Positions 4,604 to 26,759 of a DNA stretch of 30,673 nt are shown piece after piece. Within the stretch, counting starts at the first letter, position 1, and the number at the start of each line of letters is the position of its first letter. The DNA is from Candidatus Norongarragalinales archaeon (GTDB taxonomy: Archaea > Micrarchaeota > Micrarchaeia > Norongarragalinales > Norongarragalinaceae). The notes under the pieces are model-generated. The model did no database searches. It saw nothing but the letters and a program-made list of their open reading frames with translations, and was not told the DNA's origin. The position numbers and the translations under genes were made by a program. Where the stretch lies: positions 1-30,673 of the forward strand of contig DATDSY010000078.1 in the NCBI GenBank assembly GCA_035291125.1. Reading direction: 5' to 3'.

Positions 4604-6217
4604 ATGGACAGCAAAACTGCAATCGCAATAGTCTTTGCCGCGCTCGCGGCATTCTCAATCCCTGCACACGCTTTTTCCACCACTGCTGCGTTTGCGTGGC
4701 TTGACTCCCACCACACCGTCGGCTCTTACGGCTTTGCTGGCGCGAACGCGCTTGCGCTCACGGCTTTGGTAGAGTGGAGCGAAAACGCGCAGTTGCAGTC
4801 GCAGCTCGCAAACGCCATTAAGGCGGACCTGAACGACAACTCTTCCTGGAATTGGGCTGAGGCGGACTTGCCGTCGATTCAATTCTGGGCTTTGCACAAA
4901 ACAGGATTCGCTTCAACTGGAATCGATTCTGCAACGCTGTCGCAAAAGATTTTGGCTTTCAAAGGCCAGCATGGCGGGTTCACGGGATTGCAGGAGTGCG
5001 TTGCGAACTGCACCGACCCGAACTGGCAAAACCAAGTGTGGCAGCCCGTCGAAACCACTACAGATACAGCGTTGGTTTTGCTTGCGCTCGAAAGCGCAGG
5101 CACGCTGGATTCGCAAACCAAAAATGATGCCATTGCATTCCTTAGCACTTTGCAAAATGAAGACGGCTCGTTCAAGCAGTCTCTTTCCACCGGCGAAACT
5201 TCGCTCTACGCGTTGGGGCCTGATTTCGTTTCAACCACTTCGCTCGCACTGCAAGCAATGCAGCAAACCGGCTTCGGAGGAACGCCTGAGGCTGCAAAGG
5301 CAGTCGCTTTCCTAAAGCAGAAAGCCCGCTCGTGCTTCGGAAATTCCGGGAGCGTGTACGGGCCTTCGCGCGCGGCAGTCGCTTTCGCAAAATCGGGCGA
5401 AAACGCGTTTGCATCGTCAGCAGCAGCTTATGCAGCGCTCTCGCAAAAGCAGGACGGCGGTTTTGCCGACCCGCTTCGCTCGCAGTCCGACTCCAACGCC
5501 ATGGATACGGCAATGGCTTTGCTGGCGGCGAAAAACATTGCTGAAAACGCGGTTGCATGCGCGCCTTTGAGCGCTGCCCTAGCGTACAACACGCCTATTT
5601 TTCCGGGCAATGCGCAGCCCATGCGCATTACTGCAGAGGGGGCGGTGGAAAACGTTTCCTTCACTGTAACAAAGCCTTCCGGAGGGTTCGTCGAATTGCA
5701 GGCGCAGCAAACCCAGCAAGGGGTTTTCGAAACCGTTTTTTCCAACACAGCGGAAGCGGGGAATTATTCCATTCTCGCGACGATCATAGCCATGCAAGGC
5801 GGGAGGCTCGTGAAAAGCGGGGTTTTCGAAGTCAAAAGCGCTTCAGCCTCCCCCACTCCGACGCCCACGCCTACGCCAACACCATCCCCGTCAAACCAGG
5901 AGATAAAGGTCGTGTTTGTAACTCCCTATCCAACCCCCACTGCAACGCCGTCCATAACTCCTACTCCCACGCCTTCGCCAACGCCGCAGGAGCGTGAAAC
6001 TGCGAAGGAAAGCGTTTCGACAAAGCAAAACGAGGAAGCGACTACGCCGTCTGGCTTGACAGCGCTTGCCGCTGCAAAGCCGAACGCATGGTTTTCATTC
6101 AGCGTCGACGAAAAAAACATAGCGCTTTCACTCAACCCCATCGTTTTTATTAGCCTGCTCGCCCTAGGGATTATTTTCTCGTTATACAGGAAATGGAATA
6201 AAGTGAATTGGAAATGA
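4604..6217 (+). CDS. Secreted, C-terminally anchored prenyltransferase/squalene-oxidase-repeat (alpha/alpha barrel) protein
   Basis: ATG at 4604 after an AAGGTGGG RBS. Signal peptide (FSIPAHA|F). Repeats FKGQHGGF, LQNEDGSF, SQKQDGGF with DTALVLLAL, STTSLALQAM, DTAMALLA. Then a beta-rich domain, PT linker, C-terminal TM and basic tail. Confidence 0.75.
   Translation: MDSKTAIAIVFAALAAFSIPAHAFSTTAAFAWLDSHHTVGSYGFAGANALALTALVEWSENAQLQSQLANAIKADLNDNSSWNWAEADLPSIQFWALHKTGFASTGIDSATLSQKILAFKGQHGGFTGLQECVANCTDPNWQNQVWQPVETTTDTALVLLALESAGTLDSQTKNDAIAFLSTLQNEDGSFKQSLSTGETSLYALGPDFVSTTSLALQAMQQTGFGGTPEAAKAVAFLKQKARSCFGNSGSVYGPSRAAVAFAKSGENAFASSAAAYAALSQKQDGGFADPLRSQSDSNAMDTAMALLAAKNIAENAVACAPLSAALAYNTPIFPGNAQPMRITAEGAVENVSFTVTKPSGGFVELQAQQTQQGVFETVFSNTAEAGNYSILATIIAMQGGRLVKSGVFEVKSASASPTPTPTPTPTPSPSNQEIKVVFVTPYPTPTATPSITPTPTPSPTPQERETAKESVSTKQNEEATTPSGLTALAAAKPNAWFSFSVDEKNIALSLNPIVFISLLALGIIFSLYRKWNKVNWK
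5848..5985 (+). repeat. Pro/Thr/Ser low-complexity linker (SPTPTPTPTPTPSPS ... TPTPTPSPTP)
   Basis: Read directly in the translation; codons vary between units. Confidence 0.85.
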
Positions 6218-6738
6218 AAATTCTCGACAATGCAAAATTCGCATTAGGACTGGCATTGTGCGTGCTGGCAAGGCTATTCACAGTCGCGCCCAACGTCGAG
6301 CCGATAATGGGCTTTACAATGCCTTACGCCAAGAAGTACGGCAAATACGCCGGCTTGGCCTTCGCGCTCATCGCAATGGTTTCAATCGACTTTTTCACCC
6401 AACGGCTGGGATTGTGGACGCTTTACACCGCAGGCGCTTACGCGATAATCGGCTTTGCGGCTGGAAAGTTTTTCGAAACGCGCAAATCCAATCGCACAAA
6501 CTTTCTCACATTCGCTGTCGCAGGCACGCTTTTCTTTGACGTTGCAACGGCATTGCTGTTCGGATGGCAATTCCGCCAGCCCCTCGAGCTTACGCTGTTG
6601 GGGCAAATTCCATTCACCGCAAGCCACCTGCTTTCGAACTCTATTGCAGCTTTGCTCCTGTCACCCGCGATAGCGTGGGCTTTGGACCGAACCCCCTCGC
6701 CGGCGCTTTCACCCGATGCGGCTAAAAGGATAGCTTAA
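6214..6738 (+). CDS. ECF transporter substrate-binding (S) component, CbrT-like (probable cobalamin specificity)
   Basis: ~174 aa with about 6 hydrophobic segments. LARLFTVAPNVEPI resembles the CbrT-type PNV(Q/E)P motif. ATG overlaps the upstream stop (ATGA at 6214-6217). Confidence 0.7.
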   Translation: MKILDNAKFALGLALCVLARLFTVAPNVEPIMGFTMPYAKKYGKYAGLAFALIAMVSIDFFTQRLGLWTLYTAGAYAIIGFAAGKFFETRKSNRTNFLTFAVAGTLFFDVATALLFGWQFRQPLELTLLGQIPFTASHLLSNSIAALLLSPAIAWALDRTPSPALSPDAAKRIA

Positions 6739-17901: not shown

Positions 17902-18162
17902 TGGGGTCACGGAGAATCGAACTCCGATTTGCAGGTTTCTTCAAGAGGAGGAGAAACCAAGGTTTCTCCTATCTACTCCTCTTCCTTTTCACTGGAGGAG
18001 GCAACTTTTCACGTCATCTTCGCTTTCGCGAATTCAGAGCTCCAGTCTCAAAAAGCTCACAGGCCGGCGGCAGTCCGCGGCTGCCGTGCAACCGCATTCT
18101 CCGCCAACCTCACAAAACCAAGTATACTGGAGCCTGCCGTAATGCCACTATACCATGACCCC
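17902..18162 (-). tRNA. tRNA-Trp(CCA) with an intron at 37/38
   Basis: Exon 1 (18162-18127): GGGGTCA TG GTAT AGTGGCA TTAC G GCAGG CT CCA G. Exon 2 (17936-17902): A CCTGC AAAT CGGAG TTCGATT CTCCG TGACCCC A. Acceptor, anticodon and T stems pair fully; the D stem has one T-T mismatch. CCA end is not fully encoded. Confidence 0.93.
17937..18126 (-). ncRNA. 190-nt tRNA-Trp intron containing a probable box C/D guide for C34 2'-O-methylation
   Basis: ACTGGAGC (18046-18039) is complementary to pre-tRNA G31-G37 plus the first intron base and lies 1 nt before CTGA (18037-18034). The N+5 rule points to C34. It is followed by a TTCGC-GAAA-GCGAA hairpin and a C'-like GATGA. Confidence 0.7.
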
Positions 18163-18231
18163 ATCCCAAGGCCAATTTAATACTTGATTCGGTTTAGTTT
18201 TATTAATTGCTTTTCAAGGGGTTTTTTGGGA

Positions 18232-18885
18232 ATGTTGGTGGCTGGCGCTGACGATTGCGGGAGAGGGTGCGTATTCGGCGGGATGTTCATATGCGCGTTT
18301 GCAATCGACGACTCCAAGGAGGGAGAATTGCGCAAGCTCGGCGTGAAAGATTCGAAAATGCTTTCGCCCGAAGCGCGCGAAAAACTCTACCCCAAACTAA
18401 TCAAGATGGGCGACTACGCAGTTGTAGAGTACAGCGCCGAGAAAATCACGATGCTCATGCGCCGCAAGGTTTCACTCAACACCATGGAAGCGGCAATGGT
18501 CGCGGAAGCTTTGTCGCTGTTGCGCGAGAGGCCGAAGAAAGTTTTCGTCGACTCGCCTGACCCCGACCCGCATACTTTCGAACGCCGCATCCGCAAGTTT
18601 TTCGACCACGAAATCGAATTCGTTTGCGAAAACAAGGCCGACGTCAAATATCCAGTCGTTTCCGCCGCGTCCGTAATCGGGAAAGTGCTGAGGGACAACC
18701 AGATTGAGCGCTTGCACAAGGAAATCGGGGATTTCGGAAGCGGCTATACGCACGACCCGCGCACCGTCGCTTTTCTCAAGAAAAACTTTGACCGGCTGGA
18801 AGTGCAGAAGCACTTGCGCCAAGAGTGGAGCACCATCAAAAAGAACCATGCGCCCGCAGGGCAGGCGAAGCTCGGCGATTTCTAG
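18232..18885 (+). CDS. rnhB: Ribonuclease HII
   Basis: GADDCGRGCVFG (variant of GxDEAGRGP), GVKDSKML, VFVDSP, KADVKYPVVSAASVIGKVLRD, DFGSGYTHDP. Confidence 0.9.
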   Translation: MLVAGADDCGRGCVFGGMFICAFAIDDSKEGELRKLGVKDSKMLSPEAREKLYPKLIKMGDYAVVEYSAEKITMLMRRKVSLNTMEAAMVAEALSLLRERPKKVFVDSPDPDPHTFERRIRKFFDHEIEFVCENKADVKYPVVSAASVIGKVLRDNQIERLHKEIGDFGSGYTHDPRTVAFLKKNFDRLEVQKHLRQEWSTIKKNHAPAGQAKLGDF

Positions 18886-21369: not shown

Positions 21370-21462
21370 TTATAGCAGAAGGCAAAAATATTGGAACTTT
21401 TTCTGCCTTCTGCGACTAGCGAAAAGCTGCAAAATTTCAAGTATTTCCGCTTTTCGCTATTA
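21370..21462. repeat. Double-hairpin interspersed element, copy 1 (87 nt between TTA trinucleotides)
   Basis: Perfect stems GCAGAAGGCA/TGCCTTCTGC and TAGCGAAAAGC/GCTTTTCGCTA. Near-identical to 25031-25131. Confidence 0.85.
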
Positions 21463-25030: not shown

Positions 25031-25131
25031 TTATAGCAGAAGGCAAAAATATTGGAACTTTTTCCCTGCCTTCTGCGGCTAGCGAAAAGCTGCAAAAAAA
25101 AAAGGTCGGTTGGCTCCGCTTTTCGCTATTA
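25031..25131. repeat. Double-hairpin interspersed element, copy 2 (95 nt between TTA trinucleotides)
   Basis: Same two perfect stems as copy 1; only the second loop differs substantially. Confidence 0.85.
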
Positions 25132-26728: not shown

Positions 26729-26759
26729 GTTACTACCCTGCAGTTGGGACTATTTAAAG
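26729..26759 (-). promoter_or_regulatory. TATA box plus shared 17-bp element, copy 2
   Basis: Plus strand GTTACTACCCTGCAGTT-N5-TATTTAAAG, identical to 17821-17851 apart from the 5-nt spacer. Confidence 0.75.

Follow-up and report, generated by a model that had tools for sequence, protein, structure and literature searches.

Rotated box C/D guide and dispersed hairpin repeat in a 190-nt tRNA-Trp intron of a Norongarragalinales-related Micrarchaeote

The tRNA-Trp gene, its intron and the processing machinery

The analyzed window, a stretch of 30,673 nucleotides, belongs to an 898 kb genome bin (78% complete), whose host is a Norongarragalinales-related Micrarchaeote. The sequencing runs containing the stretch are groundwater and soil metagenomes. 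On the minus strand, a tRNA-Trp(CCA) gene spanning positions 18162-17902 was detected by ARAGORN with introns enabled. It is transcribed divergently from the gene for RNase HII and is followed by an ORF for an Ig-like surface protein of 1563 aa. The 5′ exon (18127-18162) comprises tRNA positions 1-37 and the 3′ exon (17902-17936) reaches from A38 to A73. They are separated by a 190-nt intron at position 37/38 (17937-18126, all on the minus strand). Joining the exons yields a 71-nt tRNA-Trp(CCA), and removal of the intron restores the full tRNA with five of five anticodon-stem pairs. The intron proposed in the original prediction is thus borne out by both ARAGORN and the joined exons. At a low threshold, ARAGORN returned noise, and a second intron at 41/42 was dismissed, as no BHB is formed there.

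The BHB of the intron is relaxed. Its central helix has three of four pairs with a C34.A mismatch, its outer helix consists of 1 bp, and its 3′ half (17937-17942) comprises the GAAG helix strand and the AA of the bulge. The strict hBHBh′ motif is not formed; what was found is the relaxed hBH form together with genes for a broad-specificity endonuclease and RtcB. A central helix of three out of four pairs is the norm among Micrarchaeia Trp introns (59 of 82). The EndA protein (386 aa) matches the epsilon2 enzyme of ARMAN-2 over its full length (PDB 4FZ2, E 6e-125), which fits the 3/4 central helix and the 1-bp outer helix; the ARMAN-2 enzyme cleaves relaxed BHBs (PMC3239211). Fibrillarin, L7Ae-family proteins and RtcB are also encoded in the genome. 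Nop5 is absent from this 78% complete bin and present in all four congeners.

In the rtcB gene (G000, C111, about 6197-6226, L291), the active-site motif GVGY/DINCG is interrupted by a hairpin insert of 30 nt that contains two stops. Inserts at the same site are 29 nt long in G004 (L287) and 33 nt long in G054 (L321), and one of 36 nt was found at another site in G032 (L317). Judged by its sequence, the rtcB insert is a candidate tRNA-type mRNA intron. Elsewhere in the window, a gene for a ribonucleotide reductase with a LAGLIDADG intein is located at 76-2853, and a 31-nt motif with a TTTAAA box lies upstream of two minus-strand genes (17821-17851 and 26729-26759), possibly as a common promoter or operator.

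The intron had been described as unusually long. For comparison, 82 distinct Trp introns at 37/38 were collected from the class, 39 of them from the order. In the class the median is 89 nt, with 24 introns above 129 nt, 16 of at least 150 nt and 6 of at least 190 nt. In the order the lengths range from 43 to 289 nt with a median of 114 nt; 17 of the 39 exceed 129 nt, 10 reach at least 150 nt and the two longest have 278 and 289 nt. The Trp intron L091 has 133 nt. Within the genus, the alleles measure 86, 168, 190 and 190 nt. This genome also contains other long, hairpin-rich tRNA introns; those of two tRNA-Thr genes, for instance, measure 129 and 143 nt. A length of 190 nt therefore ranks high within the broad spread seen in this lineage, but is no outlier. 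Two findings had been named as counting against an unusual intron, namely similar lengths in relatives and an extra sequence without conservation or covariation. The former applies; of the extra sequence, nothing beyond variable hairpins is conserved.

Guide elements and box order

The guide ACTGGAGCT (18038-18046) is followed by the D box CTGA (18034-18037). Under the N+5 rule its fifth base falls on C34, in a 9-bp duplex (-15.3 kcal/mol) that covers the first intron base of the target. A match of this quality is reached by 0.45% of shuffled introns. The proposed C34 guide is intact. The D box is invariant in the five aligned alleles of the genus, in all of which CTGGAG-N-TCTGA is unchanged while the adjacent sequence turns over. 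A C34 duplex of at least 6 bp was found in 48 of the 82 Micrarchaeia Trp introns.

The second element that had been proposed, GGTTTT with GTGA, places its fifth base on C39 as expected. The duplex has 6 bp (-5.5 kcal/mol; 1.6% of shuffles are as good), and this decayed guide (18114-18122) pairs across the 3′ splice junction. The D′-like box GTGA (18110-18113; GCGA in G002) seems, from its sequence, to have K-turn geometry with 18060-18054. The latter is the C′-like box GTGAGCT (18054-18060), which pairs with the D′-like box by G-U and C-G and is found at the same place in G001 and G002. The C-like box ATGACGT (18011-18017) is located downstream of D, in the rotated position. Overlapping it, GTGAAAAGT (18012-18004; GTGAAGAGC in G001) may be a decayed older C box. 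The C-like boxes are degenerate, with 4/7 and 5/7 of RUGAUGA. Both K-turn motifs are present, each with stem, 3-nt bulge, tandem G.A and C-G pair, and the second one covaries in relatives.

The order of elements in the intron is thus guide39, D′-like GTGA, hairpin P1, C′-like GTGAGCT, guide34, D, hairpin P2 and C-like ATGACGT. The published order in 26 archaea is C-guide39-D′-C′-guide34-D (PMC2584109, supplement 4). Instead of the canonical box order C-D′-C′-D, the tRNA-Trp intron shows D′-C′-D-C. With the C box shifted behind D, both kink-turns close locally and the splice junction comes to lie in the spacer between C and guide39. The intron would work like a classical tRNA-Trp C/D guide but does not follow its box order, and is a rotated variant of it.

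The rotation is found throughout the class Micrarchaeia, where, of 27 dual-guide introns, 26 have the 39 guide upstream of that for 34. Of 12 distinct types, 11 show a pair between the seventh base of the C-like box after D and the base that ends the C34 guide (shuffle mean 6.2). Likewise, the final base of the intron is paired with the 39 guide in each of 25 distinct pairs (G:C 10, A:T 8, T:A 7; shuffle mean 8.5), a position that played no part in choosing these pairs; the shuffle counts overstate the significance, since relatives are not independent. The occurrence of three pair types argues for real selection despite this kinship. As the pairing reaches across the splice junction, the target would be the unspliced pre-tRNA, as in Haloferax. 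Based on the covariation in relatives, the GGTTTT-GTGA element is the homologue of the position-39 guide. This guide has at least 8 bp in 25 relatives, whereas it has 6 bp here, in G001 and in G002 and is absent in G004; it is decaying in this genus.

The intron has no match to a C/D family of Rfam, even at E 10. Two hits to microRNA families were rejected as chance hairpin matches. Minimal Trp introns of 22-63 nt, which keep a single kink-turn and one or two guides, were observed in Micrarchaeia, Hadarchaeia, Bathyarchaeia and Aenigmarchaeota (L010, L036, L008, L161, L162, L164). In four further Trp introns the C34 guide apparently comes first (L160, L182, L197, L227).

It had also been suggested that the long intron carries extra guides or another RNA function. 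The candidate ends in GCCTCCTCCA-GTGA, and a multi-guide RNA can be drawn with ATGACGT as C box, GAAAAGTTGCCTCCTCCA as guide and GTGA as D box of a third unit directed at an rRNA or tRNA site. ATGACGT and GTGA are a guide-like 18 nt apart, and G002 has the identical segment, although this identity may reflect recent exchange. The bin is without rRNA, and the 16S and 23S sequences of four congeners served as targets. The best duplex of the identical segment with the rRNA of G002 has 8 bp including one G.U, which 129 of 300 shuffles match. None of the seven intron sequences in front of D-like words exceeded 8.5 against the 16S and 23S of G002 or G001, and the best genome-wide hits of the segment include none within a detected tRNA. 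In addition, the GTGA is deleted in the 97% identical strain L115, and the segment is rewritten as a different, perfect hairpin in G001 and missing in G004. It corresponds to an arm of hairpin B, the second hairpin of a dispersed repeat, and in 10 of 16 copies of this repeat the equivalent arm pairs with CCTCTTCC. A third guide was thus rejected and is very improbable, and another RNA function is likewise unsupported.

Hairpins, dispersed repeat and allele turnover

The intron folds with -74.3 kcal/mol (z = -4.2). Its extra sequence consists of about 50 nt in an enlarged P1 stem, 14 nt in P2 and the last 60 nt or so (18001-17943), which are a dispersed repeat. Hairpin P1 (18062-18109, -32.9 kcal/mol) closes the first K-turn and is reduced to about 10 nt in the 86-nt congener allele. 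Its inner helix GCGGTTGC/GCAGCCGC (18095-18077) is retained in all three long congener alleles. Hairpin P2 (18019-18032), with a GAAA tetraloop, forms the stem of the second K-turn; in most dual-guide relatives its counterpart is a loop of 3-6 nt. Two of the hairpins named in the original prediction are present, TTCGC-GAAA-GCGAA as well as GGAGAAAC/GTTTCTCC with its AAGAGG/CCTCTT extension. For the remaining one, CGGCAG/CTGCCG, pairing is possible, but it lies outside the lowest-energy fold and is broken in G001.

The segment 17943-18001 is an inverted copy of a double-hairpin repeat, in which hairpin B (arms 18001-17994 and 17985-17978) is followed by a linker and by hairpin A (17970-17949). 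A BLAST search with the locus matched this segment elsewhere in several genomes. A strict pattern identified 16 copies in 9 of 68 genomes and none in the control. The introns of other tRNAs (anticodon arm, T-loop) contain nine of the copies; two more immediately follow tRNA 3′ ends and another follows a C/D-like sRNA. In every one of these copies the GGAGAAAC/GTTTCTCC hairpin comes first. Two copies are inverted, both directly before the 3′ splice site of tRNA-Trp, and the remaining two occur in other contexts. Further copies in this genome were found in a tRNA-Met intron and between genes, some of them split by nested hairpins. For the copy in this intron, the opposite strand gives the more stable fold (-28.7 kcal/mol compared with -22.1 kcal/mol), with a G.U pair in place of a C.A mismatch, as is expected for an inverted insertion at the DNA level.

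The inverted repeat has the same position and orientation in the Trp introns of this genome (G000), of G001 and of two members of another family (G031, G049). A GAGAAACC/GGTTTC-like hairpin at the same place and in the same orientation before the tRNA-Trp 3′ splice site was observed in Aenigmarchaeota, another phylum (L165, L172). The site shared with G031, G049 and Aenigmarchaeota could reflect a selected role instead of repeated insertion.

The tag before the repeat is GTAG here and in four other copies; elsewhere it is TTAG, ATAG, GGAG or missing. Mobilization of the REP/RAYT type is unsupported, as no Y1 transposase was found in five genomes of the genus and the hairpin A pattern of the repeat flanks none of the 20 Y1 loci in the order. 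The C39 guide is complementary over 9 bp to the copies with the hairpin first. Retargeting was weighed for this, and copying at the DNA level or chance explains it equally well.

Several observations concern similar elements. Two intergenic copies of an element of about 100 nt (window 21370-21460 and 25031-25131, 85% alike) contain a GCAGAAGGCA/TGCCTTCTGC hairpin and probably belong to the same repeat system. In G001 (C1, about 212800; L275), a repeat copy is immediately preceded by a canonical C/D box sRNA that is not annotated. Many tRNA genes of this genome have introns in the D-arm, anticodon arm or T-loop (C83, C109, C116, C123, C61, C58, C34, C127, C14). These introns are built of TTTCTTT/AAAGAAA, GCAGAA/TTCTGC and GGAAAC/GTTTCC hairpin modules, and several were missed or mis-called by ARAGORN. 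The 16S genes of the genus measure 1492-2260 nt and the 23S genes up to 3687 nt, with the TTTCTTT/AAAGAAA module in some of the inserts (L136-L140, L144-L147). G003 has two different 16S sequences, for which bin contamination is possible.

The G002 allele is also 190 nt long, probably by coincidence. With G001 as outgroup, it would be derived by the loss of 27 nt between AGAAACCT-like direct repeats, the acquisition of a 28-nt hairpin that belongs to a different repeat type, and the loss of one G; hairpin A is lost in it. The 3′ end of the intron differs between the sibling species. In two independent runs, the depths of the two 5′-half alleles add up to that of one contig carrying the G002-type 3′ end (20 + 9.0 vs. 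28.7 and 41.3 + 16.7 vs. 58.1). In the same runs the 3′ hairpin of the window is unassembled at those positions and its flanks are assembled. These depths suggest a mosaic allele within the species and exchange between co-occurring species. L113 combines the RNase HII protein of this species with a G002-type intron and is possibly a chimeric contig, as both species co-occur in the samples; it was not taken as proof of such exchange. Between G002 and this genome, about 2-11 differences per 100 nt were counted across the tRNA and RNase HII, and 16-23 per 100 nt just downstream (window 17900-18800, L002). The low divergence suggests a recent exchange of this block between the species.

Interpretation and relation to known systems

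The locus is best explained as a normal, protein-spliced Micrarchaeota 37/38 tRNA-Trp intron, which carries the rotated box C/D guide of the lineage and owes its extra length to filler of repeat origin. We assign this reading a probability of about 80%. From the observed anatomy, covariation, repeat dispersal, allele turnover and gene content, we infer the following course of events. The two K-turns would form locally (D′-P1-C′ and D-P2-C) and bind L7Ae, Nop5 and fibrillarin, and the guide between them would direct Cm34 on the unspliced pre-tRNA. The guide at the 5′ end would be the ancestral position-39 guide, which with 6 bp is probably weak by now. The epsilon2-type endonuclease is predicted to cut the relaxed BHB, and RtcB to ligate the exons and probably to circularize the intron. 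The additional 100 nt or so would be tolerated where the guide has no need of them, as enlarged K-turn stems and as a repeat that seems to have been inserted in inverted orientation, at the DNA level, between the last C box and the 3′ splice site.

The repeat could instead be a selected structural part of long Trp introns, serving the protection of the 3′ splice site or a two-step (recursive) splicing. Its position and orientation are the same in G000, G001, G031 and G049, and the sequence GGAG-AA/A-CC mimics the 3′ junction; its central helix would have all 4 bp, compared with 3/4 at the true site, and after a cut there an intron of 27 nt would remain, its true site still intact. However, hairpin A sequesters the mimic (its eight inner pairs have probabilities >0.98), this hairpin is lost in G002, and the repeat is missing in most relatives including the congener G004, which makes a selected role unlikely. 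Slightly less probable still is a vestigial guide, with the intron being spliceable filler only that guides no methylation. The 6-bp C39 guide and its loss in G004 would fit this, as would the degenerate boxes, a mismatch at guide position -2 in G002, the many Micrarchaeia Trp introns without a guide and the reported dispensability of the guide in Haloferax (title of Joardar 2008, cited in PMC4090602). This is opposed by the invariance of CTGGAG-N-TCTGA in five alleles amid turnover, by the C34 duplexes of at least 6 bp in 48 of 82 introns and by fibrillarin and Nop5, which are kept in the genus. Finally, a fragmented metagenome bin whose contigs break at the repeat could give rise to an artifactual long intron by the collapse of repeats. 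This explanation is practically negligible and is refuted by the independent assembly L115 and run X1, which show the same intron with few differences; G002 and G001 have versions of 190 and 168 nt.

The preferred reading, a rotated guide with repeat-derived filler, can be compared with the intron-encoded dual guides of Haloferax volcanii (103 nt) and Pyrococcus (sR50) (PMC2584109, PMC7994747). The location at 37/38, the guide for 34, a homologue of the guide for 39 and the pairing with the pre-tRNA across the splice junctions are shared. So is the placement of the position-39 guide before D′ and of the C34 guide before D, and a hairpin may close the D′/C′ kink-turn in both. Here, in contrast, the C box stands behind D, the kink-turns close locally and a guide spacer contains the splice junction. 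The guide for position 39 has 6 bp, variable hairpins contribute about 100 nt more, and the BHB is relaxed, whereas it is a near-perfect hBHBh′ in Haloferax. ARMAN-2 (Ca. Micrarchaeum acidiphilum; PMC3239211) belongs to the same phylum and likewise has an EndA of the 4FZ2 type and many intron-bearing tRNAs, including T-loop introns. The introns tested there have 13-25 nt, and long introns built of repeats or a rotated Trp guide are not described in the excerpted text.

Transposed tRNA introns are known from Thermoproteales (Fujishima 2010, as summarized in PMC4090602). Relative to this summary, the recurring unit here is a module of about 45-60 nt and no whole intron, and this module is also found downstream of tRNAs and of a C/D-like sRNA as well as between genes, with nested insertions and with the inverted orientation in Trp introns. 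REP/BIME palindromes with their RAYT transposase as well as MITEs are short, dispersed palindromes, which occur in either orientation and in nested pile-ups. The repeat resembles them in being palindromic, dispersed and present in both orientations, and in several copies GTAG or GGAG precedes the hairpin by a few bases. It differs in that its tag is not constant, no Y1 transposase was found in the genus or with the repeat at its flanks, and the copies cluster in stable-RNA genes. Among the titles and abstracts searched, none describes the rotated layout or the repeat family. The locus adds the combination of rotated layout and repeat, the Trp-specific inverted orientation and sibling alleles that display the turnover.

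Two lineage-wide features come together in the intron, namely a rotated layout of the methylation guide and a hairpin repeat by which tRNA introns are built and enlarged. The sibling alleles of 86, 168, 190 and 190 nt separate the constrained parts (C34 guide, D box, kink-turns) from the free ones, and they provide a natural series for the assembly of rotated C/D RNPs and for the gain of sequence in tRNA introns. The published length range of archaeal tRNA introns, 11-129 nt (PMC4090602), needs revision, although this copy is itself unexceptional. More tentatively, and at somewhat less than even odds, the intron may record an undescribed mobile mini-element of DPANN archaea, which targets stable-RNA genes, is hidden by tRNA splicing, inserts in either orientation and is exchanged between co-occurring species. 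It would here be inverted, next to a splice junction resembling its own hairpin arm, and hosted by a rotated C/D guide that takes up any cargo in its spacer between C and guide39. If true, this would give a concrete DNA source for the gain and growth of archaeal tRNA introns.
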